Assembly: GCA_963748665.1 (NCBI GenBank)
Contig: CAVVJW010000036.1
Coordinates: 19,655-83,654 of the forward strand
DNA length: 64,000 bases
Source: Ignavibacteriota bacterium
GTDB taxonomy: Bacteria > Bacteroidota > Ignavibacteria > Tepidaquicellales > Tepidaquicellaceae
Reading direction: 5' to 3'
In this document: one piece after another, positions 1 to 40,092 of the stretch
Numbering within the stretch: the first letter of the stretch is position 1
How the letters are laid out: every line of letters starts with the position of its first letter
Notes under the pieces: generated by a model
Database searches by the model: none
Told to the model about the DNA's origin: nothing
The model's input: only the letters and a program-made list of their open reading frames with translations
Translations under genes and position numbers: made by a program

Positions 1-195
1 GCGCTTGCACTGGAATACCAACTGGCAGCCGACATTGTAGGTACAACTATAGCACCGTCAACTGAACATCTCATCAGATTAGGAGCAATTGCATTAATAC
101 GTACATTTTTAAATTACTTCCTTAACAGGGAAGTGAAAGAAGAAATGGAATTAAGAAAAACAATTATAGAAAAAGGAATGGTGGATGATAAGTAA
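1..195 (+). CDS. 3' end of an upstream membrane-protein gene (DUF1622-like C-terminus), partial at window edge
   Basis: Frame 1 is open from base 1 to TAA at 193-195 (ALALEYQLAADIVGTTIAPSTEHLIRLGAIALIRTFLNYFLNREV...). It is absent from the ORF track because the start lies outside the window. The family call is from memory of the DUF1622 pattern. Confidence 0.4.
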   Translation, partial: ALALEYQLAADIVGTTIAPSTEHLIRLGAIALIRTFLNYFLNREVKEEMELRKTIIEKGMVDDK

Positions 196-300
196 TCCTG
201 GCAAAAGAATACATTATATAGATAAAACAAAATAATACTGTTCCAGTGATTTAAAACAGATCCAAAATACGCTATTTTTAAAATTAAATAAAGAAAAAAC

Positions 301-2723
301 ATGAAAAAAGAAGATTTAAAAAAATCCACAGGAAAAGTAACAGTCGATAATGCACGAGTCGACAGGCTGAAAGAACAGCACATGAGCACGCCTCAGGAGA
401 TTGATAATGAGCGTATAAGGATTATGGCAGAGGTTTACGAAGGTACAGCCGGCTACCAGCAGATTCTCCGAAGGGCTAAATTCTTCGAGCAAGTGATTGA
501 AAGGAAGAAGTTGTACATCGACGAGAATATCATTGTGGGTAGTATGGCAAGTACTGTTAATGGTATTTACACCTATCCTGAATGGAATGTACAATGGATG
601 AAAGAAGAGAATACCGTTGAAAACTCAAAAACCGAAGAGGACCGAAAGGCAAATAAATGGGCACTTGAATATTGGGACAAGTGGGCATTAAGACCACGTG
701 CCGACGAAATCTTTATTAAAAAATATGGTTATGACCCCGATCCTGTTTACCAGTCAGGGCTTGTTGCTGAATTTATGTCGTGGCCCGGTGGCGGCGGTAA
801 CCTCAATTACCCCAGGGTTTATAACGAAGGACTTGCCAGCATGATGGCTGAAGTGAAAGAAAGGCAGATGGCTCTCGATATGCGTTTGCCGAATGCTTCA
901 AAGTTCTATTTCTACGAAGCAAGTCTCATTACCATGAAGGCTGTTATCCGTTTAGCACATCGTTATGCTGAACTGGCCCGCGAAATGGCGGCAAAAGAGA
1001 AGAACGAAACCCGTAAAGCAGAACTTTTAGCTATTGCCGAAACCTGCGAATGGGTTCCGGAACACCCGGCACGCAACCTGCGCGAAGCCATTCAGTGCCA
1101 TTTCCTCTGCCATATCTGTGCCGAAATCGAACAGGTGGGATGCGGATATTCCGAAGCTTACCTGGGCCAGAACTTGGAGCCTTTCTATAAACGCGATCTG
1201 GAAGCCGGTTTAACAAGCCCCGAAGAGGCAACCTATTTATTGAAACTTCTTTTTATAAAGCTGAACGAAATAGGTTATTATTACGGAGCAAAAGTGGCTC
1301 TGCAAAACTCTGCCGACCTGGGTCAGAGTATTTCCCTCGGAGGTTTTACCCTGGATGGTGAAGATGCAACTGCGGCTATGGACTTCCATATCCTTGATGC
1401 TGCAAATTATCTTCATTTGCCACAGCCCCCGCTCACCTGTGTTTACACCGAAAAGATGAGTGGCAAATTCCTGGAAAAGGTTCTCGATGTAATAGGTACG
1501 GGTATCGGAATGCCCCAGTTTGTAAATGGAAATGTGATGATGTTGCGGGCTTTAAACCTATTTGCCGATTCCGAAAAAGGGCTTACACTCGAAAAAGCCA
1601 GACGCACCTGTATCGGAGCTTGTGTAGGAAGTTATATCCCATACGAAACCGGACACCCGGTTGAAGGACAACCAAATCTTGGAAAAGTACTTGAACTTAC
1701 CCTGAACGATGGTTTCGATCCACGTCTGAAAAAACAGATCGGACCAAAGACCGGAAATCCGGAGAAATTTAAAAATTTCGAAGAATTGTATTCAGCCTTT
1801 GAGAAACAACTCCAGTTCTGCGAAGATACGCTGAGAAGAGAAGCCTGGATCGCCAGTATTCTGTGTGCCGAATACCTGCCTGTTACCTGGCGTTCGCTTC
1901 TTACCGGTGGCTGTATTGAAAAAGGCACCGAAGTATGGAATGGAGGAGCCAATTATTACACCGTTGCCCAGATTGTTGTGGGTGGTATTGATGCTTCGAA
2001 CGGGTTAATGGCTGTTAAAAAACTGGTTTACGACGATAAAAAAATAACCATGGCCGAGTTGTTAAAAGCGCTGGCAGCCAACTTTGAAGGAGAATATAAA
2101 CAAATAGGTAAAATGTGTTACGAGGCTCCCAAAGCATGGTAACGACATTCCCGAAATGAACCGTTTCACCCGCAGGGTATATAACTCTATTTACCAGGCA
2201 TTCCAGAATGTAGAAGGAGGAGGTAATTACATCAGCAAAGACATCAAATCGGCACCCGATGCTTATACCAAGAGTATCCACAACCTGATGGGGCTTGGTA
2301 ACCGGGGCATTGCCTACCGGTAAAAAAGCCGGGGTTGCACTTTCCGATGGCAGTTTGTCGGCTATGCCGGGCACCGATGTCAACGGACCTACCGCATTGG
2401 TGATGTCTGCGGCAAAAAGTATGGATTCCATCAAGTTCACTGCAACGCACATGAACATGAAACTCCCTCCTGAACAATTGAAAACACGCAAGGGCAGAGA
2501 AAATGTTCTGAATCTGGTTAAAACCTATTTCGACAATGAAGGTTATCATATTCAGTTCAATGTGCTCGATACCAATATCCTGAGAGATGCGCAAAAACAT
2601 CCGGAAAAATACCGTGACCTGGTGGTTCGTGTAGCCGGTTTCAGCGCCTTCTTCACCAAACTGCACGTGGGCGTGCAGAACGAGGTCATCGAACGGACCC
2701 TGCAGAGTTTCGAACAGCATTAA
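301..2723 (+). CDS. Glycyl radical enzyme (PFL fold), copy 1; frame broken twice as assembled
   Basis: ORFs 301-2142 and 2295-2723 plus a bridging frame 2135-2290 (..PKHGNDIPEMNRF..) reconstruct about 807 aa. Glycyl-radical motif RVAGF at 2628-2642. Cys loop IGACVGSY at 1609-1635. Long conserved blocks are shared with the GRE at 34924-37410 (RYAELAREMAA..IAETCEWVPEHPARNLREA). Breaks at about 2134 and in the G4 run 2290-2293. Confidence 0.9.
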
Positions 2724-2742
2724 GAATTTAAGAAGTTACAAA

Positions 2743-2778
2743 GTAAGGCATGGCGATGTGTCATGCCTTACTTTTTTC
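2743..2778 (+). terminator. Rho-independent-type hairpin directly after GRE1
   Basis: gtaaggcatg (2743-2752) / catgccttac (2762-2771), a 10-bp stem, followed by tttttt. Confidence 0.8.
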
Positions 2779-2818
2779 CGATTAAAAAAGTTTTAGTAAA
2801 AACACTAAAAAATATATT

Positions 2819-3986
2819 ATGAGTACAGATACAGGACAAAAGCGCGTTGCCATTATGGTAGGTGCCGGTTACATTCCCGGAATAAATGCTGTAGTTGCAG
2901 GTGCCTCACTTGCTGCCGGTAAATTAGGATGGGAGTTGGTGGGCATCCTCGATGGATTTGAAGGTATTCTTCATCCCGAAAAATACCCCGAATGGCGGAT
3001 TAATTCCGATCGATCCCCGGAAATTGAACCTCGATCCAAATACAAGCAGTGTTCTGGGCCAGTCGGCACGGATTGATCCGTTCAATGTTCGCACCATCAA
3101 CGAATTGGAAATGGTTGAGGAAGTGGATATGTCGGATGAATTACTGAAAAAATTAAAAGCGGAAAAGATTGATGCAGTTATTTCGATAGTTGGCGGAAAA
3201 GGTATGAGTATTCTTTACCAGCTTCACAAAAAAGGTTTGAATACAGTATGTGTTCCCCGTTCCATCGAAAACGAAATTGCATCCACTTCGGTATCATTCG
3301 GGTTTAACACGGCACTTACTTTTACCATCGATATGCTCGACCGTGCACGCCTGGCGGCAAGGGCTGCCCATAAAATTGCAGTGGTTGAGGTACAGGGAGA
3401 GGAAGCCGGATGGATTGCCTTACAAGCAGGTATTGCAGTTGCTGCCGATGCGGTGCTGATTCCTGAGATTCCGGTGGATCTTAAGCATGTAGCAACACAC
3501 CTGAAAGCTAAGATGTCAGGCAAAAAGTCCTGGGGTTTGGTAGTTGTGGCGCAAGGCGCAAAATTAATCAATCAGAAGAAAAATGAAGAAAAAGTTTCAT
3601 CACTTAAAGCTTCGTTATCGCCACTGGCAACCAGCGATTCCAACAGTGAATACGTGATTCATAAGTCAGGTCAGGCAGCACAGGCTGTGGCTGAAGGATT
3701 GCAACTGCGTATAGCCGAGGAAACTTTTCCGATGGTAATTGGTCCCTGGGTCAGAGGCGGTTCACCTTCGGCGGTCGATCGCCAATTGGGTGTAGCTTAT
3801 GGTGCAGGAGCAATTCAGGCACTGGAAGCCGGCAGTAACGGGGTAATGGTGTCGTTTGTTCCACCTGATGTTAAGTTCGTTCCGCTTGCTGAAGCCATCA
3901 ACAAAGTAAGGACAATACCCGCTGAAAGCATGTTTTTTCAGGTTGCAAATTCACTTGATATTTACTTTGGAAATAAGGAGGCATAA
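2819..3986 (+). CDS. PFK-family (phosphofructokinase-fold) protein with degenerate kinase motifs, paralog A; one frame break
   Basis: ORFs 2819-3076 and 2952-3986 join at the C4 run 2986-2989 (HPEKYP|NGGLIPIDP). PfkA-like core is present: IDAVISIVGG, CVPRSIENEIAST, FGFNTAL, KIAVVEVQGEEAGW, VRGGSPS. But GGD is GAGY, GGDGS is GGKGM and MGR is QGE. Confidence 0.8.
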
Positions 3987-3988
3987 TT

Positions 3989-4945
3989 ATGACAAATCAA
4001 GCAAAAAATATATTGGAGGTAACAGGAACAGTACTGAATATCCAACGGTATTGCAGCCACGACGGTCCCGGCACACGTACAAACGTTTTCATTAAGGGTT
4101 GTTCCCTGCGATGCAAATGGTGCGGAAATCCGGAAAGTATCCGGATGAAGCCGGAAGTTTCGTACGACCCAAAAAAATGTGACGGAAAGAAGTGCAGTAT
4201 TTGTCTGAAAGCACCATTCCCCGAAGGCGGTTTTTATTTTGCAGAGGGTGATGATACAAAGGTAAAAGTCAACTGGCAGTTGGCCGCAGGAGTAAAACTG
4301 GAAATTGCCTCACTTTGCCCCACCGGTGCACTCGAAATGTTTGGTAAAACCATGACCGTTGGAGAAGTAATGGACGAAGTGGAAAAAGACTCCTCCATTT
4401 ACCGAAATACCGGCGGAGGTATGACGATAAGCGGCGGCGAGGTAATGCTTCAGCCGGATTTTGCTGCAGCTTTGCTGCAGGAAGCACACAACCGCGGCAT
4501 TAATACTGCCATTGAAACAGCCTGCAATGCACCATGGTCTTTCCTTGAGAAAGTACTTCCTCATGTTGATACAATGCTTCACGACCTGAAACTGATGAAT
4601 TCAGAACGACATAAAAAATGGACAGGGGTGGGCAACGAGCGAATTCTGGCAAACTTCAAAAAAGCTTATGAAACGTTTCCTGACATAGATTTTATTGCCC
4701 GTACGCCGCTAATTCCCGGTGTAAATGCAGATGAGGAACATATACGTGGTGTACTGGAATTCATAAAACCGCACAAAAACGTGATTGATTACGAATTGCT
4801 GCCCTACCACCGTTTTGGGCTTGGTAAGTATGAATCTCTTGGTGTAGTTTACGAACTCGACGATTACAAAACACCTTCGGATGAAGTAGTAAAAAGGTTT
4901 CAGGCTATGATCGATGAAGCGTTTGGACGGACTCAAGTAAAATAA
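3989..4945 (+). CDS. Glycyl-radical enzyme activating enzyme (radical SAM), copy 1
   Basis: 318 aa. Activase signature CSHDGPGTRTNVFIKGCSLRCKWCGNPE (CX3CX2C), plus an auxiliary Cys cluster CDGKKCSIC...LCPTGA. Starts 2 nt after the paralog A stop. Confidence 0.9.
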   Translation: MTNQAKNILEVTGTVLNIQRYCSHDGPGTRTNVFIKGCSLRCKWCGNPESIRMKPEVSYDPKKCDGKKCSICLKAPFPEGGFYFAEGDDTKVKVNWQLAAGVKLEIASLCPTGALEMFGKTMTVGEVMDEVEKDSSIYRNTGGGMTISGGEVMLQPDFAAALLQEAHNRGINTAIETACNAPWSFLEKVLPHVDTMLHDLKLMNSERHKKWTGVGNERILANFKKAYETFPDIDFIARTPLIPGVNADEEHIRGVLEFIKPHKNVIDYELLPYHRFGLGKYESLGVVYELDDYKTPSDEVVKRFQAMIDEAFGRTQVK

Positions 4946-5009
4946 AAGAAATCAAAACGGAATATTGGTAAAAACAGTAAAATAAAATTTCAGATTAAAA
5001 GGAAATTAT

Positions 5010-6137
5010 ATGATTAAGAATTTAGGTCACGCAGGTACACATAGACGCATTGCTATCAATATTGGGTCAGGGTTCGTCCCGGGAACAAATGCAGTTGTTA
5101 TGGGTGCGGCCATTGCAGGTGGTAAACTGGGGTGGGAGATGATCGGCATCCGGGATGGATTTGAAGGACTTCTTTTTCCAGACCGGTATCCCAATGGCGG
5201 ATTGCTTGCACTCAGCCCCGAACTGATTGAGAACCTCGATCCCGCCACCGGAGGAATCCTTGGCCAGGCGCCAAGAGTTGATCCATTTCATACAACTTCT
5301 TTTAATGGCGGAGAGATTGATTTTTCTGATAAAATATTAACAAGGTTTAAGGAAGCAGACATAGATGCGTTAATTTCAATCGTGGGTGAACAGGGGCTTG
5401 GCATTCTCCAGAATCTGCATCATAAAGGGCTTCATACAGTTTGCATTCCACGTTCGATTGAGAACGACATTGCTTCAACTGCTGTATCGTTCGGGTTTAA
5501 CAGCGCCCTCAGTGTTACTATAGAAATGCTTAATAAGGCTTATCAGGCTGCCAAATCTGCCCGTAAGATTGCAGTAGTGGAAGTTCCGGGTGAGCAGGCA
5601 GGATGGATTGCGTTGCAGGCAGGTATTGCCGTACGTGCCGATGCTGTTCTGATGCCTGAAATTCCGTGCGACCTGAAAAACCTTGCTATGCGATTAAAAG
5701 ACAAAATATCTGACCGTAGGTCTTACGGTCTTGTAGTGGTTGCAGAAGGAGCTAAATTAATTGATTATCCTGAAAACCCTGATGACCAGTCATCCGCAAT
5801 TTCACCGGAAACAATAGCGATTGGCCAAGTGGCTGGCACTGTTGCGTCAAGGCTTCAAAAACTGATAACTGAAGAGACTTATCCGTTGGTAATTGGTGCT
5901 TGGGCAAGGGGTGGGAATCCAACTGCAACTGACCATCAACTTGGGATGGCATACGGCGCGGGATCAGTTCAGGTACTGAAAGCTGGACAAAATGGGGTAA
6001 TGGTATCTTTTATACCACCCGATATCGGATTTGTGCCGCTGAAAAATGTTGTTGACAAAGTGAGAACGGTACCAGCTGAAAGCGAATTTATGAGAATTGC
6101 TCAGTCACTTGGTATCTACCTTGGAAACCGCTTATAA
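5010..6137 (+). CDS. PFK-family protein with degenerate kinase motifs, paralog B (intact)
   Basis: 375 aa. Motifs GSGFVPGTNAVV, IVGEQGLGIL, CIPRSIENDIAST, KIAVVEVPGEQAGW, ARGGNPT. Same architecture as paralogs A, C and D. Confidence 0.8.
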   Translation: MIKNLGHAGTHRRIAINIGSGFVPGTNAVVMGAAIAGGKLGWEMIGIRDGFEGLLFPDRYPNGGLLALSPELIENLDPATGGILGQAPRVDPFHTTSFNGGEIDFSDKILTRFKEADIDALISIVGEQGLGILQNLHHKGLHTVCIPRSIENDIASTAVSFGFNSALSVTIEMLNKAYQAAKSARKIAVVEVPGEQAGWIALQAGIAVRADAVLMPEIPCDLKNLAMRLKDKISDRRSYGLVVVAEGAKLIDYPENPDDQSSAISPETIAIGQVAGTVASRLQKLITEETYPLVIGAWARGGNPTATDHQLGMAYGAGSVQVLKAGQNGVMVSFIPPDIGFVPLKNVVDKVRTVPAESEFMRIAQSLGIYLGNRL

Positions 6138-6163
6138 GCAGAACATGATGTTGTGGATGGAGA

Positions 6164-7420
6164 ATGAAAAAATCTGAACTTAAAGAAACGAAATCAAAAA
6201 GCGACAACTTTAATTCAAAAAGTTTAACGATGGAAAATATCAAAATATCAGAAGATGTTTACGAAAAACTGGCAGATGCGCTTGATGCACTTCCAGCCGG
6301 TTTTACCAGAACTCCCTCTAAATCGGAAATAAAACTTATCAAGATGGTCTTTTCTCTTGAGGAGGCTTTTGTTGCAAGTACTTTAAGCCGCAAGCTCGAG
6401 ACAGCTGACGAAATTGCCAAACGGCTTGTTCTTCCCGTAGATAAAGTGACCGAATTGCTCGAGGGAATGATACCTCGTCGTATGGTAAAAGCTGACACGC
6501 TTGCCCTTGAGACAGGTGTTAAAGGACTTGGGAAAGTAGAAGCAAAACCTGGTCAGACAAAAGAAGAGAGCGTGAAGAAATACAGACTCTTTCCTTTCCT
6601 TGTTGGCTGGTATGAATCGTATCTACAGGAGGTTAAGCCTGAGACTCCAGAATTTGCAAGAATTTTTGAGCAATATGTTATAGAAGGCGGAGGCGAAAAA
6701 ATCTTTGCCCCGCGTCCAGGACCGCAGGGCACCATCCCATACCGTGGCTCTCTAAAACCTGAGTGGCTAAAAAAGGAACCTCACAACGATATTGACGCCC
6801 ACTTCCAGCGGCACGACCGTTTCCTTGTACTCGATTGTGTGTGCAAGAAAGAGAAAGCTGCTGCTCACGGACATAGCTGCCACATGCCCAACAAGCGATG
6901 TGGTTTCGTAGGTATGCCTCCCGTGGTTCCTCTCTCTGAAAATGTGCTAAATCGCGAAGAAGCCATCAAACTCTGGAATGAGTTAGATGCCATGGGAACA
7001 ATGATGATTCAGGGTTTCTATGGATTCACAATGGGAGCGGAGGAACCTCAGTTCGTCGGCGGCTGTCACTGCTGCGGTTGTTGCTGCACAATATTGCAGG
7101 GAGGTCGTATGGGCAAACTTACTGAATCTGTTGAGAGATCGAATTACCGTGTAGTGAAGGATTATGACAAATGTACAAACTGCGGGGAGTGTATCAGGCG
7201 CTGCCAGTTCTTTGCACATAAATGGGAAAAAACTAAAGATGGAAAAATATCGGTTTATGACAGAGATAAATGCGTCGGATGTGGATCCTGCGGTCAGGGA
7301 TGTTTATCGGGTGCGCTCCACCTTGAACCGGTTTCCGAGGAGGAATGGTTACAAGTTCCTTCAAGTTTTATTGGATGGGAAGAAGCGCGATTAAAGAATA
7401 TGGGAATGATTAAGGAATAA
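6164..7420 (+). CDS. Cys-rich Fe-S protein 1 (N-terminal helical domain plus C-terminal 2x[4Fe-4S] ferredoxin motifs); family unassigned
   Basis: CTNCGECIRRC...CVGCGSCGQGC (two CX2CX2CX3C motifs). Additional CVCKKE..C..C and CHCCGCCC (7064-7087) clusters. The N-terminus DVYEKLADALDALPAGF is shared with 10150-11275. The true start may be ATG 6230 (MENIKISEDVY). Confidence 0.7.
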   Translation: MKKSELKETKSKSDNFNSKSLTMENIKISEDVYEKLADALDALPAGFTRTPSKSEIKLIKMVFSLEEAFVASTLSRKLETADEIAKRLVLPVDKVTELLEGMIPRRMVKADTLALETGVKGLGKVEAKPGQTKEESVKKYRLFPFLVGWYESYLQEVKPETPEFARIFEQYVIEGGGEKIFAPRPGPQGTIPYRGSLKPEWLKKEPHNDIDAHFQRHDRFLVLDCVCKKEKAAAHGHSCHMPNKRCGFVGMPPVVPLSENVLNREEAIKLWNELDAMGTMMIQGFYGFTMGAEEPQFVGGCHCCGCCCTILQGGRMGKLTESVERSNYRVVKDYDKCTNCGECIRRCQFFAHKWEKTKDGKISVYDRDKCVGCGSCGQGCLSGALHLEPVSEEEWLQVPSSFIGWEEARLKNMGMIKE

Positions 7421-7524
7421 AATAATATTAATTCAAAACAAATATAAGACCTGAATAATCAGATATAGTTTTATAAAAATTACACCTATTAAATAAAGGA
7501 TCATTAAATAAAAAGAGAAATGTT

Positions 7525-7602
7525 ATGATTAAAACGCCTTTGGATGAAGTAGTAAAAAAGTTTCAGGCTATGGTTGACGAGGCATTTGGAAGAATTACTT
7601 AA
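7525..7602 (+). pseudogene. Relic of the 3' end of a GRE-activase gene
   Basis: MIKTPLDEVVKKFQAMVDEAFGRIT* matches the activase-1 C-terminus YKTPSDEVVKRFQAMIDEAFGRTQVK. Nucleotide similarity to 4866-4945 is visible (ggatgaagtagtaaaaa.gtttcaggctatg). Confidence 0.7.
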
Positions 7603-7660
7603 AACATTTCAACATCAATAAATTAAATAAAAGTCCATACCTTGTCAGAGTTGATTGACA

Positions 7661-7682
7661 GGGCAGGGCTCAATAACAAAAA
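7661..7682 (+). promoter_or_regulatory. Candidate shared cis-element (22-mer), copy 1, 36 nt upstream of permease 1
   Basis: gggcagggctcaataacaaaaa matches 14259-14280 (ggccaggtctgaataacaaaca) at 19 of 22 positions. Confidence 0.25.
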
Positions 7683-7717
7683 GGCAGGTTTGAATTTGTA
7701 TAATAATATTAAAAAAA

Positions 7718-8596
7718 ATGACAGTTAGCACCATTTTTAATGTTGTAGTTATAATCTACTCGATGTCCAATTTGGCTTCACTGGGGATGGAACTCAATAT
7801 ACGTGAAACCATCAGGTCGCTGAGCAACTTCAGGCTTATCATTTTTATCTTGTTTTTCGGTTGGATTGCAGGACCGGTTTTTGCACTACTTCTTGCAAAA
7901 GTCCTTCCGATGGATACTTCCTACGGCACAGGACTGATTATTTCCAGCCTTGCTCCGGTTGCACCGTTCTTTCCAATTCTGATGCGAAAATCAAACTCAG
8001 ATAAAGACTTTGCGGGCGCACTAATGCCATTAGCCATGGTTGCCACGGTGGTCCTGCTGCCTTTAATTGGTTCATTTATGATTAAGGGCCTTACGGTTAA
8101 TATGTGGTCTTTGGCCAAACCACTTCTACTGTTGATATTGTTGCCGCTTGTTAGTGGAATTTTGCTAAGATTGTATGCAATCCGTTTTACCGACAAAATT
8201 TTTCCTGCTATGAAGCGTCTTGCCGGTATCACTACTTTGATTGCAATGCTTTTTGTACTGGTACTTTATTTTCCTGACTTCATCAGTATACTCGGTAGTT
8301 TTGCCATTGGCGCTCACATTATCTTTGTGTTCGGAATTATGTTTATTTCGTATTACTTAAGCTTCGGTCTAAAAAAGAATCAGGCCAGTGCCATAGCCTT
8401 GGGTATGGGTAGCAGGAATCCTGCCGCAATGCTGGTAGTGTATATGGCCTTACAAATCACAGATCCAAAGATGTTGCTCATGATACTGCTTGCTGGTCCG
8501 ATACCGGGAATTGCATCCTATTTTATGACAAAATATTTTGGTTCAAAAAACGTTAAAAAACAATTTATAAAATCCAAAAATGTAGAAAATTATTGA
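7718..8596 (+). CDS. BASS/ACR3-fold (bile acid:Na+ symporter family-like) permease 1
   Basis: 292 aa, polytopic. Contains LGMELN..., SSLAPVAPFFP and GMGSRNPAAML patterns typical of the SBF/BASS fold. Paralog of 11333-12211. Confidence 0.55.
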   Translation: MTVSTIFNVVVIIYSMSNLASLGMELNIRETIRSLSNFRLIIFILFFGWIAGPVFALLLAKVLPMDTSYGTGLIISSLAPVAPFFPILMRKSNSDKDFAGALMPLAMVATVVLLPLIGSFMIKGLTVNMWSLAKPLLLLILLPLVSGILLRLYAIRFTDKIFPAMKRLAGITTLIAMLFVLVLYFPDFISILGSFAIGAHIIFVFGIMFISYYLSFGLKKNQASAIALGMGSRNPAAMLVVYMALQITDPKMLLMILLAGPIPGIASYFMTKYFGSKNVKKQFIKSKNVENY

Positions 8597-8856
8597 ATAT
8601 GGAGAAAACGGGATTAAGCTTCAAAGCAAAATTAAAATTTTATACTTGTAAGGGCAGTGGTGATTGTATAAAGGCATGTCCTGAGAAAGCAATAAGTGAA
8701 GGTCCTCAGCGTATGCCTTCAGCAGTATGTCTTTCCAGCGGAAAGTATGAGATGTTACCAGGGAGAGCGATTATTGATGAAAACAAATGTACAGGTTGTG
8801 GTGATTGTGTACCGGTATGCCCTAATCATGCAATTGAAATGGCAGCAGTGTCATAG
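8593..8856 (+). CDS. Small 2x[4Fe-4S]-type ferredoxin
   Basis: CTGCGDCVPVCP and CKGSGDCIKACP motifs. The track start TTG 8593 overlaps the permease stop. ATG 8599 is the more likely start. Confidence 0.65.
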   Translation: MNMEKTGLSFKAKLKFYTCKGSGDCIKACPEKAISEGPQRMPSAVCLSSGKYEMLPGRAIIDENKCTGCGDCVPVCPNHAIEMAAVS

Positions 8857-8952
8857 GGATATTATTTATGGTCAGCCGATAAATATACTTCGGTTGGCTG
8901 AATTCTGAACTTTTAGATTATTACAGAATAAAGAAAGGGATAGAAAATTATT

Positions 8953-10153
8953 ATGATTAAACATGTTGGACACGGGGGTATTATCCGCCGCATTGCGATA
9001 AATGTAGGTGCAGGATATCTTCCGGGAATAAATACCATTATTACAGGAGCCTCCCAGGCAGCCGGTCAGTTGGGATGGGAGATTGTCGGAATCCGCGATG
9101 GCTTCGAAGGCTTGTTGCACCCTGATCGTTATCCTGATGGCGGATTGCTTACACTCAGCCCACAATTGGCTGCAATACAGGATCCCTCCGAAGGAGGCAC
9201 TCTTGGCCAGGCACCAAAGGTAGATCCGTTTAACGACACCACTCATAATAAAGATGGCGTTGATCATTCTGATGAAATATTAAAAAGGCTGAAAGAAGAA
9301 AACATTGACGCATTAATTTCAGTTGTTGGGAACCAGGGACTCGAGATCCTGTATAAGCTCTCATCGAAAGGGATTACATACGGTATGTATTCCAAAATCA
9401 ATAGAGAATGACATTCCTGTTACTTCGGTTTCTTTTGGATTTAACAGTGCGATGAGCTTTACGATAGAAATGCTGATGCGTGCCAGACAAGCGGCAATAT
9501 CTGCCAGAAAGATAGCTGTGGTGGAAGTAATAGGTGAGCATGCAGGGTGGTTGGCACTCCAGTCAGGTATAGCAATTTCTGCTGATGCGGTGTTGCTGCC
9601 GGAAATACCTTGTAATCTTAATATGCTGGCACGGAGGCTGGACGAAAAGATTTCTTCCAGGAGACCATACGGATTGGTAGTAGTTGCCGAAGGCGTAAAA
9701 CTATACAAAAAACCACAGGAAGTTAAATCTGATTCAACACGTATAGTTTCACTTCCACCGGAGGCAACCGGCGAAGCAAGTGAACAAGTAATGATTACGT
9801 CTGAAAAGACAGCCGAGACACTTGCAGGGGAACTCCAGTTGCTTATTGACAGAGAAACTTATCCACTTATTGTCGGACCATGGGCAAGAGGCGGATCGCC
9901 CACTGCCGTTGACCTGCAACTGGGTATGGCATATGGTGCAGGGGCTATTCAGGCATTGAAAGCCTCAAAGAATGGGGTAATGGTTGCTTTTGTCCCTCCT
10001 GAAATTCAATACGTGCCATTGGAAGAAATAATTAACAAAGTAAGAACCGTTTCTGCCAACAGTGAATTCCTGAAGATTGCAGGATCACTTGGTATCTATT
10101 TCGGAAACTTTTCTTCAAAGAAAACTTTACAATCAGAGGAGGTAAAAAAATGA
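8953..10153 (+). CDS. PFK-family protein with degenerate kinase motifs, paralog C; one frame break
   Basis: ORFs 8953-9411 and 9323-10153 join at the G3 run 9370-9372 (LSSKG|LHTVCIPKSIENDIPVT). Motifs GAGYLPGINTII, VVGNQGLEIL, VVEVIGEHAGW, ARGGSPT. Confidence 0.8.
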
Positions 10154-11275
10154 ACAATTCCGATATATCAATAGATGTTTACGAAAGACTTGCCAATGTA
10201 CTGGATGCAACGCCTCAGGGCTTTCCAAGGATGAAATCAGGCGTGGAAATAAAACTGCTCAGGCTGGTTTTTTCTCCCGAGGAAGTTTCTCTTGCAAGTT
10301 ACCTGTCCACAACCTATGAATATCCTGCTGTAATTGCCAGACGTGCTGGCATTGGTGAGGATGATGCCATCGTTATATTATCAGGCCTTATTTCAAGGAA
10401 ACTTGTTCGTATGCAAGGTCCGCCATCTTACCCGGGTATGCCTGCTCCCCCTCCCGGAAAAGATTCGCTCTTCCGGCTTGGTCCTTTTATGATAGGATGG
10501 TACGAAGCATGTATGCGTGTAGAAGGCAAAGAATTTGCCGAACTATTTCATCAATATATGGAAGAGGGTGGCAGTGAAAAAATCCTCGCTCCACGTCCCG
10601 GTGTATTAGGTGTAGTTCCCGTACGGGGATCTCTCAAGCCAGAATTGATGGCAACGATGGAACCGCACCTCGATATTGACGCTCATTTAAAGCGGCACGA
10701 TCGTTTTCTGGTAATGGATTGTGTGTGTAAAAGGGAGATGGAGGCCCTTGGGAAAAGATGATAGCCGCTATCCGTTAAAACGCTGCGGATTTTTAGGACT
10801 TCCTTCAAGTGTACCGCTCGGAGAACATGTACTCAGCCGGGAAGAAGCGGACCAGCTTCTTCGAAAGCTCGAAAAAATGGGGCATGTAAGCAATGCAGCT
10901 TACGGATTTCAGATGAGCGCTGAAAGCCCGCAGTACGTGGGGGGCTGCAACTGTGACCGTTACGCTTGCGGGGTATTTAACAATCACTTTCCCAGCCAGG
11001 CTTCAAACTACCGCGTAGTCAAAGACTACAAAAAATGTACTGCCTGTGGTATTTGTATCGATCGCTGTCCCACGTATGCGCATATCGATGGTAATCGTGA
11101 GGACGGTATGCCGGAATATATTCGCGAAAAGTGCATAGGTTGTGGTGTCTGCGTTATTGCGTGCGATCCTGAGGCGCTTGAATTGGAGCCGGTATCGGCA
11201 GACGAGTGGTTTTATACTCCTTCAAGTTTGGAGGAATGGGAAGAACTACGAATTAAAAATTTGGAAACAAAATAA
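10150..11275 (+). CDS. Cys-rich Fe-S protein 2 (paralog of 6164-7420); one frame break
   Basis: ORFs 10150-10761 and 10721-11275 join at the A4 run 10753-10756 (CVCKREMEALGK|DDSRYPLKRCGF). CTACGICIDRC...CIGCGVCVIAC. The ATG overlaps the paralog C stop (ATGA). Confidence 0.7.
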
Positions 11276-11332
11276 TTTATTTATAAAAATTGAATCAAAC
11301 ACAAATAAAATAATAATTTTAAAAAATAGATA

Positions 11333-12211
11333 ATGGACAATTTCATTCAAATTTGTACCTCTTTATTCGGTCCGGTGGTATTAATATTCACCGTATCTAA
11401 CCTGTTTGCCATGGGCTTACAAGTAAAAATGCCCGAAGTCCTCCAAGTGTTTAAAAACAAAAAATCACTTTTGTTGATATTCATATGGGGCTGGATAGCA
11501 GGGCCTGCGTTAGCTTGGCTTATAAAAATAATTCTTCCTTTGGAAGAGCCATACGTTATAGTATTATTACTCGCCAGTCTGGCACCAAGCGCACCATTCC
11601 TTCAGGTGATGGTTGTAAAAAGCCGCGGGGACATGGGCTTTGCAGGAGCTTTCATACCGCTGGTTGCAGTTGGTACTGTTGTGCTGATGCCATTGATGGC
11701 TCCCCTATTAATAAAGGGACTGACAATCAGCACCTGGGCACTCGCTAAACCGCTACTCCTGACCATACTTATACCGCTGATCATCGGAGCTGCGATAAGG
11801 AATTATTCAGATAAAGTTGCAACTAAGATTTTCCCGGCATCTAAGCTGATTGCCCTTATTTCCACATTAACGACTATCATGTTGTGCTTTATAATATACG
11901 GTCCAGCGATGCTCAACACGGCGGGCAGCTTTGCCCTCCTGTCAATAACACTGTTTATGGTAGTAATGGGACTGATAACTTATCGCTTCGGTTTCGGCCT
12001 GAAACGGGCACAGAGTAGTGTGATGTCACTGGGAATGGGCACTCGTAATATCGCAGCGGTTTTAGCCGGAGCTCTTGCCATTCCAAACGCTGATCCGCGT
12101 ATAGTAACTATGGTTATTATGTACACTTTGTGGTCCTTTATACTTGCCCTTATTGTAGCTAATATTTATGGTAGACTCGCAGACAAGTCAGGTGAAACAA
12201 ATGAGAATTAA
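11333..12211 (+). CDS. BASS/ACR3-fold permease 2
   Basis: 292 aa. Collinear with 7718-8596 (ASLAPSAPFLQ, GMGTRNIAAVLAG). Confidence 0.55.
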   Translation: MDNFIQICTSLFGPVVLIFTVSNLFAMGLQVKMPEVLQVFKNKKSLLLIFIWGWIAGPALAWLIKIILPLEEPYVIVLLLASLAPSAPFLQVMVVKSRGDMGFAGAFIPLVAVGTVVLMPLMAPLLIKGLTISTWALAKPLLLTILIPLIIGAAIRNYSDKVATKIFPASKLIALISTLTTIMLCFIIYGPAMLNTAGSFALLSITLFMVVMGLITYRFGFGLKRAQSSVMSLGMGTRNIAAVLAGALAIPNADPRIVTMVIMYTLWSFILALIVANIYGRLADKSGETNEN

Positions 12212-12562
12212 AGTATATAGTTAAGAGTGAAAACGTGCACAAAATGATAATGAAAGAATTCCACCACTTAGGCACTAAGGACACGACGTAGCAAGAACTT
12301 TAAACAAAGAAAAGATTTGCATACTGAAAAGAGACAATTGTGACTGAATTATACTGATTAAGAGGTTTTTAGGGTTAGAGATTAATTGAATACGGATTTA
12401 CACAGATTTAACGAATATACACTGATTTTAAAGGTTTAAAAATATAAATTTATTAATTGTTACATAGAAAATTAGAGAAGAGATATAAATGAATTACACG
12501 AATTTTACGATTTACATAAATTGGAAGAACGAATCGCAAGTGATTTATTTGAGTTTTAATAA

Positions 12563-13692: not shown

Positions 13693-14205
13693 ATGATGAA
13701 AATAAAAGAAAATTTACCTGAAGGAAAACAAACAGTACTTGGGCTTTATGTAACAGCGAAGGAAGCTTACGAGCAATGGATTGAAAATCCAGAGAAGATA
13801 AAGATTATTGACGTTCGCACTCCCGAAGAATTTATTTTTGTGGGTTATCCGGCGATGGCATGGAAAATTCCTGTTGGTACACAATCGTATGTCTGGGATG
13901 CTGAAAATGAAAAGTTCCCGATGTGTCTTCTGCCTGATTTTGTTTCCAGAGTGAAGGAAATTGCAAAACCAACTGATACAATAATGGTCACGTGCCGTTC
14001 AGGAGGACGAAGCGCAATTGCAGTCAATCTGCTTGCCAAAGAAGGATTCACACAGGCATTTAACGTTGTTGACGGCATAGAAGGTGATTTGGTGGATGAT
14101 GAAACCAGCGTATTTCATGGGCAGAGACTGAAGAATGGCTGGAAGAATTCAGGATGTCCTTGGACGTTTAAACTGACACCCGACATGTTGATACTTCCGC
14201 GATAA
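13693..14205 (+). CDS. Single-domain rhodanese (sulfurtransferase)
   Basis: 170 aa. Contains IIDVRTPEEF and the active-site loop CRSGGRS. Confidence 0.8.
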   Translation: MMKIKENLPEGKQTVLGLYVTAKEAYEQWIENPEKIKIIDVRTPEEFIFVGYPAMAWKIPVGTQSYVWDAENEKFPMCLLPDFVSRVKEIAKPTDTIMVTCRSGGRSAIAVNLLAKEGFTQAFNVVDGIEGDLVDDETSVFHGQRLKNGWKNSGCPWTFKLTPDMLILPR

Positions 14206-14329: not shown

Positions 14330-15530
14330 ATGAGCAAAGAAACTGAAAAAGTTAAAGTTACAACTTTTGAAAACACAAAGTTGAACGTGGTTAAGTTGAA
14401 TTGGAAAGAGGTGTATTACACCAATTGTCCGCTGGTGTCTGCCAGTAACGTGGATGAAGGCCTGGGCCTGACCAAGAAAGAGTATAAGAAGATCGGGGTG
14501 AAGTTTGCCTACATGCGTTCGACCCCTGAAACCGATTGGTATCCCCACTACATTCACAATCAGGAAAATCTTATCCGCTTCGGTGGTTTGTTTCCACCTA
14601 TCGAAGTCCACGCAGATATCCGTCGGACCAAACTTCTGGGGGTAACACAGATGCCGGCCGAAGGCGGCGTTATGATGGTACGCGCCAAGGACGATATCTA
14701 CCGGATGGCTGATTTAAAAGGCAAAAAGATCGGCATTTCCAAGAGTATGAACCAGATCAAAAACGACTGGTGGCGCATTCAGGAACACCAGGGGATCGAG
14801 TTGATGCTTCGGATGAACGGCATGACCATGGACGATATTGAATTGGTTGAGTTTCCTTACGCAGATGACTGGTATAATCTACCGGAAATGATGAAAGCAA
14901 CCATGGAACAATCGATTGATCTGTGGCTGGCGCGTGACCACAAGCGCGACCTGGCTTTCCGTCCGCTGGAAACCGCCCTGGAAAAAGGAATCATCGATGC
15001 GATGTACATGCAAACCAAGCCGCTTCAGCAGGTCATCTGAGGCGACGGGTAAGTTTGCAGCAATCGAGGACCTCTCCCGCTATCCTGACTGGCGCCTTCA
15101 GGTGGCTAACATTCCTGCGGCTATCACGTGTACCGATGTCATGGCCAAGGAACACCCTGAACTCGCTGTTACATTTATGAAAGGTATGATCCGGGCCGGT
15201 CGCTGGGCAAATCAGAACAAGTATGCTGCAGCTGAAATTCTCGACCAGCAGACCTTCTACCGCGACATCGAGGCTACTTACCAGGGCATTAGAGATGTTG
15301 ACCTGGTGCCCAACCTTTCACCTTTGAATCTCGCCGCTGTTAATATCGGTAAAGAATTTATGCTAAGTCATGGTTACATCAAGAATGATTTTGATGTAAA
15401 CGAATGGGCTGCCCCTGAATTCCTGGAAAAAGCAGCAAGAGAATTATTGGAAGAAGAATGGAAGAAACGATCAACGGCAAAACTTCCACAAACAGCAGGA
15501 ACATTGGAATCAGGCGGAAGAATTGGGTAA
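14330..15530 (+). CDS. DszB-like (2'-hydroxybiphenyl-2-sulfinate desulfinase family / SsuA-fold) protein; one frame break
   Basis: ORFs 14330-15040 and 14916-15530 join at about 15038. Recalled Rhodococcus DszB blocks match: YTNCPLVSA (YSNCPVPNA), IRFGGLFPPI (TRFGGEIPPL), TKLLGVT, DLKGKKIGISKS (DLAGRRIGVSAS), EATGKFAAIEDL, NEWAAPEFLEKA (DQWAAPEFLNNS). Confidence 0.65.
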
Positions 15531-23338: not shown

Positions 23339-23462
23339 ATTAAATGTATAAATAAATGAAATATCTTTTAAATTATTCAGAAAGGAAATTTAAATATGAA
23401 ATTAAATGTATATATTAATGAAATATCTTTTAAATTATTCAGAAAGGAAATTTTAATATGAA
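23339..23462 (+). repeat. 62-bp tandem duplication of the sulfatase RBS/start region
   Basis: 23339-23400 and 23401-23462 are near-identical (attaaatgtata.ata.atgaaatatcttttaaattattcagaaaggaaattt.aatatgaa). Each copy carries an ATG (23396 and 23458). Confidence 0.85.
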
Positions 23463-29989: not shown

Positions 29990-30118
29990 TTTGATATTTC
30001 AATTAAAAGCATTTTTCTGTTCATACCGGAAATTAATAAATATTAAGAAGGATAAATATCCCAATAATTAAAATAACAAACTAATCCGCCGAAAGCATCG
30101 GGGTATCTTTAACATTGT

Positions 30119-30308
30119 GCCGCCCCTACGGGGCTTATATTTTTTTAGACTCTTTTCGCTATTGATATTTCGCCCCTACGGGGCTCTTTCAAATCTTACG
30201 GGTTTATTCTGTGTCGCCCCTACGGGGCTTATATTTTTTAGACTCTTTTTGCTATTGATATTTCGCCCTACGGGGCTCTTTCAAATCTTACGCGTTTATT
30301 CTTATTGT
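30119..30308. repeat. 2 x ~94-bp tandem repeat, each unit carrying two GCCCC-TAC-GGGGC hairpins
   Basis: cgcccctacggggc occurs at 30121, 30171 and 30215, and cgccctacggggc at 30264. The flanking sequence is repeated with a 93-94 nt period. Confidence 0.85.
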
Positions 30309-30585: not shown

Positions 30586-30593
30586 CTGAAAAT

Positions 30594-31715: not shown

Positions 31716-32661
31716 TTAATTATTTTTTCTGCCAAACGCTTCATCTATGATTGATTGAAGATGTGCAAGCGATTCCTGTGTTGGCGGTTGAAAATCAGCT
31801 AACTCATATACCTGCCCAAGATATCCGTATTTTGTTTCTCCGAAACGCATATAAGGCAGTAACTCATAATCAACTACATTCTTATAAGGTTTTATGAATT
31901 CCAGCACGGCGCGAACGTGCTCTTCATCATCATTCACACCTGGTATTATCGGTGTGCGTGCGATGAACTTCTTATCAGGAAATGTCTCGTAAGCTCTTCT
32001 TTGATTTTCAAGAATTCGTTTGTTATCAACACCTGTCCATTTTTTGTGGCGTTCAGGAATTGTACATTTGTGATCGTGAAGCACGAAATCTACATGAGGT
32101 AATACTTTTTCTACGAAAGACCAGGGAACATTGAAAGCTGTTTCGATTGCAGTATTAATTCCACGACCATGTGCTTCTTTAAGAAGTGCAGATGTGAAAT
32201 CAGGCTGAACTAGACATTCTCCGCCGCTGAACGTCAATCCACCGCCTGATTGCCTGTAAAAGCTGCAATCTGCTTCCACCTCGGCAAGTACTTCATGAAC
32301 AGTCATAAGTTTGCCAAACATACACAGCGCCTGTGTCGGACAAGCCGAAATGATTTCTTCAGAGCAATCGGATGCAAGATCCCAGTTCACTTTAATTTTA
32401 TCATCTTCACCATCTGTTGCGTAAAATGCTCCTTCAGGAAAGGGAGGCTTCAGACAAAGTCCGCATTGTTTCGCGCCTATGCATTTCGCGGGATTATATG
32501 CAAGCTCAGATTTTAGTTTAATGCTCTCAGGGTTACTGCACCATTTGCACCTGAGCGAACACCCCTTCAAAAACACAGTGGTTCGGATGCCGGGCCCGTC
32601 GTGCAGACTGAAATGTTGTACATTCAGAACGATTCCTTATTGGTTGATCTTTTGTGCTCAA
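31716..32661 (-). CDS. Glycyl-radical enzyme activating enzyme, copy 2; 5' end uncertain or frame-broken
   Basis: Track ORF 31716-32576 begins inside the conserved motif. The same frame continues upstream as GIVLNVQHFSLHDGPGIRTTVFLKGCSLRCKWC up to a TAA at 32637-32639. A TTG at 32661 (shifted by one base, overlapping the PFK-fold D stop) would give MSTKDQPI.. if there is one break near 32638. Confidence 0.75.
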
Positions 32662-33825
32662 AGTACCATTTCCCTTCCAAGAGAAACTCCAAGCATCTGG
32701 GTTATCTTGATGAACGTGCTGTCTGTTGGTACCGTACGTATTTTATTAATGCATTCAGCAAGAGAAACAAACTTAAGCTCCGGCGGTTGGAAATACTACC
32801 ATAACACCACTTTGATCGTTGTCTATAGCACGTACAGCTCCTGTACCGTAACCTAAAGCAAGCTGAATGTCAACAACTGTCAGACCTCCGGCCTGTACGA
32901 GTTGATTCAGAACAATATGTTGTAGTATCAAGATCTAAGATTCTTCTCAACTCAAGAGCAACATTAGTTGAGGCAAACCCGGATTTATCTATTATAAAAT
33001 TACCGTCACCTTCTGTTGAAAGAGGGGATAACGAAGCATTAAAGTCGCTGATTTTAATTTTTTCATCAGCAAGGCTCTTCACGACAGGTCTTGCTCCTTC
33101 AGCAACCACCACCAAACCATAACTTTTCCCATTCTTTATCTTCTCATTGAAATGATTAGCTATAATATTGATGTCGTAAGGAATTTCAGGAATCAAAACA
33201 GCGTCTGCTAACGAAGCCAATCCAGCTTGTAAAGCAAGCCATCCGGCATTAGCTCCCGGGACTTCCACGACAGCAATTTTATGCGAAGCAATGGCTGCCT
33301 TTTTTATCCGGTCAAGCAATTCCGTTGTGTGGTTAAGCGCACTATTAAATCCGTAAGAAAGTTGTGTTGCCCATATATCATTCTCAATTGATTTTGGAAT
33401 GCATACAGATCTCATTCCTTTGCGGTTTAGCTTTAACAGTAGTACTCAAAGACCTGCCTTCAACCACAGAAATAACCGCATCAATTTTATTTGTCTTTAA
33501 GCTTGCAAGAATTTTTTCCGACCGATCTTCTTCTTCAACTATACCGTCTTTAATCGTTGTTCTAACGTTAAAAGGAGTCTGAACTGAAGGCATTGGAAAT
33601 TAAAGGTCTGCCGTTTATATTATCCTCTATCGGCTGCGGTATCCTAACGATTCCTCCGAATGGATATCTTTCTGGAAAAAGCAATCCGTTAAAACCATCA
33701 TGAATTCCATAAACTTCCCATCCGAGTTTATCAGCAGCTATTTGAACTCCTGCAATTACATGATTGATTCCGGGAACGAAGCCGCCGCCAATATTGATCG
33801 CCACCCGTTTTATTTTATTGTTCAT
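32658..33825 (-). pseudogene. PFK-family protein with degenerate kinase motifs, paralog D; at least 4 frame breaks as assembled
   Basis: Fragments 33568-33825, 33384-33593 and 32870-33415 plus two further frames down to TGA 32658-32660. Contains GGGFVPGINHVIAG, CIPKSIENDIWAT, KIAVVEVPGANAGW, LVQAGGLTVVDIQLALGYGTGA and INKIRTVPTDSTFIKITQMLG. Breaks at about 33580, 33400, 32914 and 32788. Confidence 0.75.
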
Positions 33826-33870
33826 TTTTATTGAATTTTAATAATCAAGTTTTAAAATCATATTTCTCAG

Positions 33871-34913: not shown

Positions 34914-34923
34914 AATACATTAA

Positions 34924-40068: not shown

Positions 40069-40092
40069 TTATAATAATATAAAAAAAATTAT

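Follow-up and report, generated by a model that had tools for sequence, protein, structure and literature searches.

A conserved, mobile glycyl radical enzyme system with phosphofructokinase-like and Fe-S accessory proteins, probably for the breakdown of organic sulfur compounds

We analysed a 64,000-nucleotide stretch of an Ignavibacteriota genome (assembly GCA_963748665.1, contig CAVVJW010000036.1, positions 19,655 to 83,654; hereafter the window), which holds two gene clusters built around glycyl radical enzymes (GREs). We regard them as two modules of a single type of GRE system, horizontally mobile and not described before: a first locus with GRE1 on the + strand and a second with GRE2 on the - strand. 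The system is conserved, mobile and equipped with unprecedented accessory genes, and it is probably used for breaking down organic sulfur compounds. The accessory genes encode homologues of 6-phosphofructokinase (PFK-like proteins) and two Fe-S proteins, FES1 and FES2. PFK-like A is translationally coupled to the GRE-activating radical S-adenosylmethionine (SAM) enzyme, the activase, while further paralogs are coupled to FES1 and FES2. Genes were called from a listing of open reading frames (ORFs) and from Pfam matches, and broken genes were traced by tblastn with the intact orthologs of two related loci, L004 and L001. The core of the first locus is composed as follows (positions in the window):

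301..2723, + strand: GRE1, in three frames, with a PFL-like domain (301-2142) and a Gly_radical domain (2295-2723), both by Pfam
2740..2778, + strand: hairpin between GRE1 and PFK-like A, with a 15-bp stem and a 5-nt loop (2740-2774), then a U-run
2819..3986, + strand: PFK-like A, partner of the activase; Pfam PFK on both fragments
3989..4945, + strand: activase 1, GRE-activating radical SAM enzyme; Pfam Radical_SAM and Fer4_12
5010..6137, + strand: PFK-like B, partner of FES1; intact, 375 amino acids; Pfam PFK, 202 bits
6164..7420, + strand: Fe-S protein 1 (FES1), with a probable true start at 6230; Pfam covers residues 330-384 only
7531..7593, + strand: relic of an activase 3' end, from tblastn and frame translation
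7718..8596, + strand: SBF/BASS-family permease 1; Pfam SBF
8593..8856, + strand: small 2x[4Fe-4S] ferredoxin; Pfam Fer4 families
8953..10153, + strand: PFK-like C, partner of FES2; tblastn with L004 PFK-C, 87% identity, two frames
10150..11275, + strand: Fe-S protein 2 (FES2); tblastn with L004 FES2, 83-91% identity
11333..12211, + strand: SBF/BASS-family permease 2; Pfam SBF

ORFs and Pfam matches recovered every gene that the initial annotation had named for this locus, on the + strand and in the sequence it had given. The 2-nt gap described between PFK-A and the activase gene reads TAA-tt-ATG, the ATGA overlap of PFK-C and FES2 can be read directly in the sequence, the proposed activase relic (7531-7593) is 86% identical to activase residues 294-314, and the hairpin noted behind GRE1 pairs without mismatch over 15 bp ahead of a U-run (fold z = -4.07). 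The overlap claimed for permease 1 and the ferredoxin holds with a TTG start only; with the ATG at 8599 the two genes are separated by 2 nt. The intact GRE1 ortholog of L004 yielded three collinear high-scoring segment pairs on the window in tblastn searches. In the region around 7420-7718, comparison with the intact L004 cluster reveals an insertion between FES1 and PFK-C that consists of the activase relic, SBF permease 1 and the ferredoxin, which is evidence for recent recombination among cluster copies. Beyond position 12211 the cluster goes on: genes for a rhodanese, a DszB-like protein and a CoA-persulfide reductase follow, none of which the initial annotation had mentioned.

GRE1 has the architecture of the GRE superfamily, with matches to PF02901 and PF01228 on two fragments in the window, and NCBIfam GRE models cover its L004 ortholog over the full length. 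Its glycyl radical fingerprint, RVAGFSAFFTKLHVGVQNEVIER, follows the pattern RVxG[FWY]x6-8[FL]x4Qx2[IV]x2R (PMC13450708), and its Cys loop reads GACVGSY. Three patterns were invariant among the orthologs scanned, without any other variants: GACVG[ST]Y (GACVGSY n=57, GACVGTY n=4, none else), WPGGGGNL[ND]Y and RVAGF. Mean pairwise identity was 76% among 45 full-length orthologs from many phyla, indicating strong purifying selection.

We then asked whether GRE1 belongs to a characterised isofunctional cluster, which is not the case. HypD was the best NCBIfam model, with a score of 495 versus a cutoff of 1100 (no equivalog was reached), and also the best match among solved structures (416 bits). 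The CXE motif is kept by all GRE eliminases and isomerases (PMC13450708). GRE1 lacks this mark of the 1,2-eliminases and isomerases: in the HMMER alignment it has C-V-G where HypD has G-C-V-E. Manual column counting in the HMMER alignment placed the eliminase His of HypD (H160) in the invariant WPGGGGNL[ND]Y loop of GRE1 and HypD D278 at its invariant Cys297 (QVGCGYSE). Cys286 is invariant as well, and both Cys286 and Cys297 lie in active-site strands. None of the equivalents of IslA R189, Q193 and R678 is kept (GGGG loop; by hand alignment, Asp at R678), and on the HpsG-type model NF048011 a GRE1 ortholog scored 425 versus a cutoff of 1000. Judged by its sequence, GRE1 is thus outside the characterised GRE families and represents a new catalytic clade.

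The PFK-like proteins are true PF00365 homologues in both domains. PFK-like A is 85-88% identical to the intact PFK-A of L004, and for PFK-like B we found 2793 homologues, the best 120 of which are 70-87% identical. Their Pfam PFK scores are about 200 bits, versus about 340-360 for canonical PFKs, and all NCBIfam PFK cutoffs were missed (TIGR02483, 240 vs 430; NF002872, 208 vs 253; TIGR02482, 142 vs 371). For a motif census, 129 PFK-like proteins were aligned to E. coli PfkA, and pairwise to 1zxx. The Asp of GGD and the Asp of GDGS were kept in none of the 129 proteins, in agreement with the 1zxx alignment. The MGR Arg is replaced by Glu in 95/129 and the catalytic Asp127 by Glu in 118/129, Arg or Lys occupies the position of G124, and the 6-phosphate ligands Arg243 and His249 are changed to Tyr/Phe and Pro, respectively. 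Retained are the SIEND loop (S-I-E/D-N-D) and the equivalents of Arg72, Asn128/Asp129, Glu222 and Arg252; conservation reaches at least 95% at 96 alignment positions, and 127/129 proteins have Cys145. Since the ATP/Mg2+ aspartates are lost in all 129, the PFK-like proteins do not appear to be ordinary kinases, and this motif loss, together with the scores below cutoff, would rule out a canonical kinase role. Domain fusions were sought among the 50%-identity representatives, where the long matches were ordinary PFKs with unrelated extensions, P0464 apart. In this protein of 507 amino acids, a GRE C-terminus with the end of the PFL-like domain and the Gly_radical domain is joined to a PFK-like N-terminus; it may be a natural fusion or the read-through of a mis-sequenced stop.

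A cognate activase accompanies both GREs (3989-4945 and 31716-32672). Activase 1 reached 313 on TIGR02494 (cutoff 174), and its best equivalog was the HpsH-type model with 344, below the cutoff of 430. The proteins FES1 and FES2 (about 395 amino acids) consist of a C-terminal 2x[4Fe-4S] ferredoxin domain and an N-terminal region of about 300 amino acids, for which no match was obtained in Pfam (E <= 10), in a PDB profile search or among PDB folds. The alignment revealed 10 invariant Cys and one His in this region of FES1 (C203, C205, C217, C224, C279, H280, C281, C282, C284, C285 and C286), which include CxC, CHC and a CCG-containing run; FTR has CPC...CHC, and HdrB two CCG motifs. FES2 is without most of the Cys run of FES1. 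Among the 60 PDB profile hits listed for FES there were no small subunits of BSS, MASS or HPAD, but ferredoxin-domain matches only, and FES1 and FES2 are taken to be unrelated to the Fe-S small subunits of these enzymes.

Seeded with the PFK-like proteins only, a genome scan of the GTDB species representatives gave 458 relatives. Of these, the best 76 loci were studied, all of them from metagenome-assembled genomes (MAGs). They belong to Bacteroidota, Chloroflexota, Desulfobacterota, Acidobacteriota, Verrucomicrobiota, Actinomycetota, Nitrospirota, Proteobacteria, Ignavibacteria, Hydrogenedentes and Aminicenantes. A local census of 79 loci (+/-10 kb) gave the following counts:

Core genes: GRE1 70/79; activase 68/79; FES 61/79
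Sulfur genes: CoA-persulfide reductase 38/79; DszB-like 34/79; rhodanese 24/79
Transport: SBF 34/79; outer-membrane protein 20/79; SulP 12/79
Others: GH63 31/79; Zn-dependent alcohol dehydrogenase (Zn-ADH) 18/79; ferredoxin 12/79

Seven of the nine loci without GRE1 end at a contig edge. As a collinear core, GRE1, the hairpin, PFK-A and the activase gene were nearly universal in the 79 loci. Adjacencies were strict: GRE1 was followed by PFK-A (n=66), PFK-A by the activase gene (n=68, median gap 2 nt), PFK-B by FES1 (n=38) and PFK-C by FES2 (n=15, median gap -4). In 18 loci the core occurred without FES, so that the minimal unit appears to be GRE1/PFK-A/activase. With GRE1 in 70 of 79 PFK-seeded loci and adjacencies that repeat, the co-occurrence of PFK-like and GRE genes extends across genomes, and 79 loci from more than 10 phyla support the view of the initial annotation that the association is functional and not accidental. 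Of the repeated PFK/Fe-S/permease unit it had described, the pairing of PFK and Fe-S genes recurs, whereas the permease is not constant (34/79). Its view that the genes match no characterised GRE system is upheld for GRE1, the PFK-like and the FES proteins, but not for GRE2, which is in or near the C-S lyase clade.

Regulators of the sigma54/PAS and LuxR types also recur in the neighbourhood, as do an FNR-like reductase (14 loci), SAM synthetase (MetK, 13 loci), ABM-domain proteins (13 loci) and nitroreductase-Fer4 proteins (8 loci). MetK is encoded inside or directly after the cluster (e.g. L007, 14810-16153; L082, 15375-16556). As SAM is expected to be used once per activation, MetK beside a GRE is unusual and a hint of heavy or repeated SAM use. 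Both GRE1 and GRE2 modules are accompanied by a large GH63 (MGH1-like) gene, often followed by Zn-ADH (e.g. 16025-20057 in L001, 13518-16481 in L085 and 10339-14140 in L093). Families of microcompartment shell proteins were found in none of the annotated neighbourhoods. There is a cultured carrier, Flavihumibacter profundi (L082; GCA_020076305.1, JAIQXE010000001.1, 1734268-1756760), whose GRE1 is 82% identical and whose genes are ordered GerE / GRE1 / PFK-A / activase / cupin / MetK / L-serine dehydratase. Within 10 kb of its core, neither an Fe-S partner nor sulfur genes were detected.

The hairpin behind GRE1 is conserved too. A stem of at least 8 bp was present in 61 of 64 orthologous GRE1/PFK-A intergenic regions, and RNAalifold predicted 14 pairs for orthologous intergenic regions (L001-L081), 10 of them with compensatory double changes. 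The consensus, CCGGTACGGCGTGGC-loop-GTCACGCCGTACCGG, has a nearly invariant GGC.TGGC core and is kept across phyla. In high-GC lineages there is no U-run, and a semi-conserved stretch, GAAGTTCCYTGATGAGC, comes after the hairpin. An Rfam scan of window positions 1-13000 (E <= 1) matched no family to the hairpin. Probably, it uncouples the expression of the abundant catalytic GRE1 from that of the accessory genes; given its sequence conservation, it may do something more specific.

The second GRE/PFK/activase locus reported by the initial annotation was found on the - strand at 31716-37410. It additionally encodes an SDR-family oxidoreductase that had been omitted:

34924..37410, - strand: GRE2, intact, 828 amino acids
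33871..34686, - strand: SDR-family oxidoreductase; NCBIfam SDR families
~32673..33825, - strand: PFK-like D, directly upstream of activase 2; tblastn fragments
31716..32672, - strand: activase 2, with a tentative start codon; 67% identical to activase 1, located by tblastn (activase residues 13-314)

At the position of PFK-D, intact orthologs are present in L085 and other loci. NCBIfam GRE models match GRE2 full length, its fingerprint is RVAGYSAYFVDLSPAQQAEIIAR, and its Cys loop reads SGCCE. The closest PDB entries were those of IseG, IslA and HpsG (5ymr, 788 bits; 7kq3, 755; 6lon, 754), and on NF048011 GRE2 scored 964.7, just under the cutoff of 1000. GRE2 keeps CXE and the R189 and R678 equivalents, while Q193 is changed to Asn, with a Gln one position earlier. 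Its matches, motifs and sub-cutoff score suggest that GRE2 either belongs to the C-S lyase clade as a divergent member or is a neighbour of it. The idea that GRE2, too, lies outside known clusters was not borne out, as its place is at the margin of the IslA/IseG/HpsG lyases.

When metagenomes were scanned with GRE2 as seed, a PFK-like gene was present in 22 loci and was followed by the activase in 13; the order GRE2-SDR-PFK-like-activase recurs in about 20 independent contigs. PFK-like genes therefore precede the activase beside GREs of two clades, which are only 33% identical to each other. In the metagenome contigs, SBF, GH63, Zn-ADH and CMD are often close to the GRE2 module. On the 3' side of GRE2 there is a strong terminator-like hairpin (34860-34915, - strand; GUGGGGUG...CACCCCAC and a U-run), the sequence of which is unrelated to the GRE1 hairpin. 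In the window, several large beta-barrel/porin-like outer-membrane genes flank the GRE2 module (28720-31367 and 38632-43857, - strand), one of them apparently frameshifted, and among these genes lie an Amidohydro_2-family gene (37500-38585) and a gene for 345 amino acids (41601-42638).

On the 3' side of the first locus, three genes with predicted functions in sulfur metabolism were found:

13693..14205, + strand: single-domain rhodanese; Pfam Rhodanese
14330..15530, + strand: DszB-like (SsuA-fold) putative desulfinase; tblastn with the L001 homologue, 72-73% identity
16787..18496, + strand: CoA-disulfide/persulfide reductase fused to a rhodanese domain; Pfam

An AI-2E transporter, an enoyl-CoA hydratase and two ABM proteins are also encoded 3' of 12211. 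A sulfatase gene (23458-25830, + strand), apparently frameshifted at 24131-24345 and with an SGSH_C-like continuation, adds a sulfate-ester function. The only PDB homologue of the DszB-like protein in a phmmer search was DszB (2de2, E = 1e-10). DszB Cys27 is reportedly catalytic, and His60, Arg70 and Gly73 are said to bind the sulfinate. All four residues were aligned in the DszB-like protein, and among its homologues [YF]TNCP is present in 27/29 and H..RFGGL[FY]PP in 23/29. The CoA-persulfide reductase matched 3icr (507 bits), 3nta (477) and 8a56 (448) in the PDB and contains both active-site Cys motifs, SYANCGLPY and CRSGGR. With DszB-like protein, CoA-persulfide reductase, rhodanese, SBF/SulP transporters and sulfatase as neighbours, the island points to organosulfur catabolism; this context is strong, yet not universal.

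We propose that the PFK-like proteins act as ligand-binding, non-kinase partners of proteins with 2x[4Fe-4S] domains, namely the activase, FES1 and FES2. They keep the loops of the sugar-phosphate site and the invariant Cys, with the ATP/Mg2+ site gone. Together with them, a dedicated reductive chain from NAD(P)H or ferredoxin via FES to the activase would be formed or gated. This chain would install the glycyl radical and re-install it after loss, and fuller versions may re-reduce cysteines of GRE1. Ferredoxin (12 loci), the FNR-like protein (14) and MetK (13) suggest a dedicated activation and electron supply, in which they would provide electrons and SAM for radical installation. Like IslA and HpsG, GRE2 with the SDR would cleave a small hydroxy-sulfonate, yielding sulfite and a carbonyl compound. 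The reaction of GRE1, which is without the eliminase Glu and His and has an extra active-site Cys, might be a radical transformation of another kind, at or next to a C-S bond, with an imported organosulfur anion as substrate. The DszB-like desulfinase would release sulfite, rhodanese and CoA-persulfide reductase would deal with the reactive sulfur produced, and SBF, SulP and outer-membrane proteins would transport substrate and products.

Several points weigh against this reading. The contacts of the PFK-like proteins with activase and FES are read only from gene order and coupling, and the retained sugar-site loops and invariant Cys would equally suit a catalytic role of the PFK-like proteins. 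An AlphaFold2 model of FES1 (39 homologues) had a mean pLDDT of 58, and Foldseek matched its C-terminal ferredoxin domain only. Within +/-10 kb, many loci but not all have sulfur genes: Terriglobia loci (e.g. L069) and Flavihumibacter profundi have the core, regulators, MetK and L-serine dehydratase only. In addition, an IslA-type reaction needs no desulfinase, so that the link between the DszB-like protein and GRE1 is a guess, and GH63 (31 loci) and Zn-ADH (18 loci) fall outside the proposed account. Taken as a whole, from PFK-like partner subunits through a reductive activation chain to organosulfur mobilisation, we offer the reading tentatively and think it slightly more apt to fail in some part than to hold throughout.

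The GH63 and Zn-ADH genes would find a place in a sulfo-sugar pathway, which we nevertheless regard as quite unlikely. Here, the PFK-like proteins would act on or bind a 6-sulfo- or 6-phospho-sugar such as sulfofructose, the sulfonate analogue of fructose-6-phosphate; GH63 would free the sugar from a glycoside (e.g. sulfoquinovosyl-glycerol), GRE1 would cut the C6-S bond by radical chemistry, and Zn-ADH or SDR would reduce the keto-sugar. The fructose-6-phosphate loops are kept, and the change of Arg243/His249 to Tyr/Phe and Pro would suit a monoanionic sulfonate. GH63 and Zn-ADH occur in 31/79 and 18/79 loci and stand in-operon with the GRE2 module, and anaerobic direct desulfonation of sulfoquinovose is not known (PMC12890257). 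However, the ATP/Mg2+ site is lost in 129/129 proteins, and the three to four paralogs per locus are each tied to an Fe-S or radical-SAM partner, unlike a pathway kinase. Moreover, isomerase or aldolase genes are not recurrent among the neighbours, and GH63 is absent from the minimal loci.

The extra cysteines of GRE1 allow for another explanation, a reductive GRE. Class III ribonucleotide reductase depends on a thioredoxin- or FTR-like partner, and by this precedent GRE1 would catalyse a two-electron reduction in which a Cys pair is oxidised in each turnover. Either Cys297/Cys286 or the Cys of the PFK-like proteins would form a disulfide or persulfide, PFK-like and FES proteins would be ferredoxin-dependent disulfide reductases, and the Cys-rich CxC...C...CHCCGCCC centre would work like the clusters of FTR or HdrB. 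The invariant Cys286 and Cys297 in active-site strands, the 10 invariant non-ferredoxin Cys and the His of FES1, CCG run included, and the common neighbours CoA-persulfide reductase and rhodanese are all in line with such chemistry. But GRE1 occurs in 18 loci that have no FES at all, most of the Cys run is missing from FES2, and for FES1 a match to FTR or HdrB was found neither by sequence nor by fold (PDB profile search; Foldseek on a poor model). The PFK-like/activase pair, which also stands beside the redox-neutral IslA-like GRE2, is left unexplained, and we attach little probability to a reductive GRE.

Frameshifts, on which the initial annotation was silent, interrupt eight genes, six in the first locus and two in the second; sites were placed as follows:

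~2111-2133 and ~2292-2296, + strand: GRE1, two sites
~2976-2989, + strand: PFK-A
~9362-9375, + strand: PFK-C
~10730-10755, + strand: FES2
~15024-15034, + strand: DszB-like gene
within 32673-33825, - strand: PFK-D, at least four, from tblastn fragments in three frames

The inspected breaks of the first locus lie at or beside short homopolymers (e.g. CCCAAAG, TGGGGC, GAAAAATACCCC, GAAAGGG and GGGAAAAG). Most related loci come from a nanopore-based MAG set (MFD; contig names 'contig_N') and many are split likewise. In L004, a close Bacteroidales relative, the cluster is fully intact, and so are the genes in metagenome contigs with the GRE2 module, presumably short-read assemblies. Indels at homopolymers and intact orthologs argue for assembly indels over decay, and the frameshifts in the window are probably nanopore assembly errors. 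For PFK-D this is less certain than for the other genes. The pseudogene reading of the frameshifts is accordingly unlikely, PFK-D remaining uncertain. Overlapping ORF pairs elsewhere in the window (e.g. 23458/24131, 28720/29303 and 40093/41201) hint at the same indel problem. Although genes are interrupted in both loci and the activase relic marks a rearranged region, we give hardly any credence to decay or accident as an explanation of the whole, that is, to frameshifted pseudogenes with ordinary glycolytic PFK genes nearby by chance, since the inspected breaks of the first locus sit at or beside homopolymers, nanopore loci of the same project are split alike while L004 and the presumed short-read contigs are intact, GRE1 orthologs share 76% mean identity and the adjacency rules repeat 15 to 68 times.

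Our account of PFK-like partner proteins and organosulfur mobilisation can be sharpened to a bolder claim. In this version, PFK-like pseudo-kinases would be obligate subunits of a distinct activase subfamily and of a new multi-cluster Fe-S class, forming a metabolite-gated reductive machine that installs the radical and perhaps renews it repeatedly or reduces the enzyme again, and GRE1 would perform CXE-free radical C-S chemistry; we consider it unlikely, if worth stating. If true, it would, with the DszB-like desulfinase, give soil and sediment anaerobes of more than 10 phyla an oxygen-independent way of stripping sulfur beyond the reach of IslA-type enzymes. Soils hold sulfur mainly in organic form, and a GRE1 that cuts C-S bonds without CXE would supply a missing part of the anaerobic sulfur cycle. 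Key reactions of anaerobic metabolism depend on GREs, and entire clades are without assignment. The GRE1 clade stands out among them as highly conserved and widespread in soil, peat and freshwater-sediment genomes, with accessory proteins unrecorded for GREs. Should PFK-like and Fe-S proteins aid activation, this would bear on the bottleneck of the field, obtaining active GREs in vitro, and would be a new case of a glycolytic enzyme fold reused as a partner, be it non-catalytic or re-purposed. With Flavihumibacter profundi as cultured carrier the question is directly testable.

Literature searches returned nothing relevant on GREs in combination with PFK, with rhodaneses or desulfinases, or with newer sulfonate substrates, nor on PFK-like proteins together with radical SAM enzymes. 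In a GRE review of June 2026, neither PFK-like or kinase partners nor sulfinate come up (PMC13450708), and recent reviews of sulfoquinovose and sulfonate metabolism, one of January 2026 included (PMC12890257), list no such GRE.

Compared with characterised systems, GRE1 is most similar to HypD, with which it aligns full length over the PFL-like fold (416 bits), glycyl fingerprint and catalytic Cys included. It differs from HypD in that Gly stands for Glu436, a Gly of the GGGG loop for His160 and Cys for Asp278, in its score far below the HypD model cutoff and in its gene context. From IslA, IseG and HpsG, GRE1 differs by the lack of CXE, and it is only about 33% identical to GRE2. GRE2, on the other hand, shares with these three lyases the structure matches, CXE, both sulfonate-anchoring Arg and the glycyl fingerprint. 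As in their systems, a reductase (here the SDR) and the activase adjoin the GRE, and the sulfite-releasing logic fits. It departs from them by Asn in place of the anchoring Gln (RHSQNW vs RSSIQW) and by missing the equivalog cutoff. In the GRE2 module, a PFK-like gene precedes the activase, for which the GRE review has no counterpart (PMC13450708).

The PFK-like proteins share with 6-phosphofructokinases (PF00365) the homology in both domains, the catalytic-loop pattern and Arg72, Glu222 and Arg252. In contrast to these enzymes, they have lost the GGD and GDGS Asp and the MGR Arg and miss the family cutoffs, and in every case their genes are coupled to one for an Fe-S or radical-SAM partner. 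For Fe-S accessories of a GRE, the only precedent is found in BSS (beta/gamma), MASS (beta/gamma/delta) and HPAD (gamma), where additional Fe-S proteins are likewise encoded alongside the GRE; these HiPIP/rubredoxin-like subunits have an enigmatic role (PMC13450708). They are small and bound to the catalytic subunit, whereas the FES proteins comprise about 395 amino acids, combine a ferredoxin domain with a novel Cys-rich region and have a PFK-like partner.

Among the sulfur enzymes, the DszB-like protein conserves the equivalents of Cys27, His60, Arg70 and Gly73 of DszB, the 2'-hydroxybiphenyl-2-sulfinate desulfinase of the aerobic 4S pathway. However, identity to DszB is low, the protein is longer (about 400-414 vs 365 amino acids), and it is encoded in anaerobes, beside GREs and without DszA or DszC. 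The reductase of the window, finally, resembles CoADR-RHD, Npsr and CoAPR over the full length and has both of their Cys motifs.

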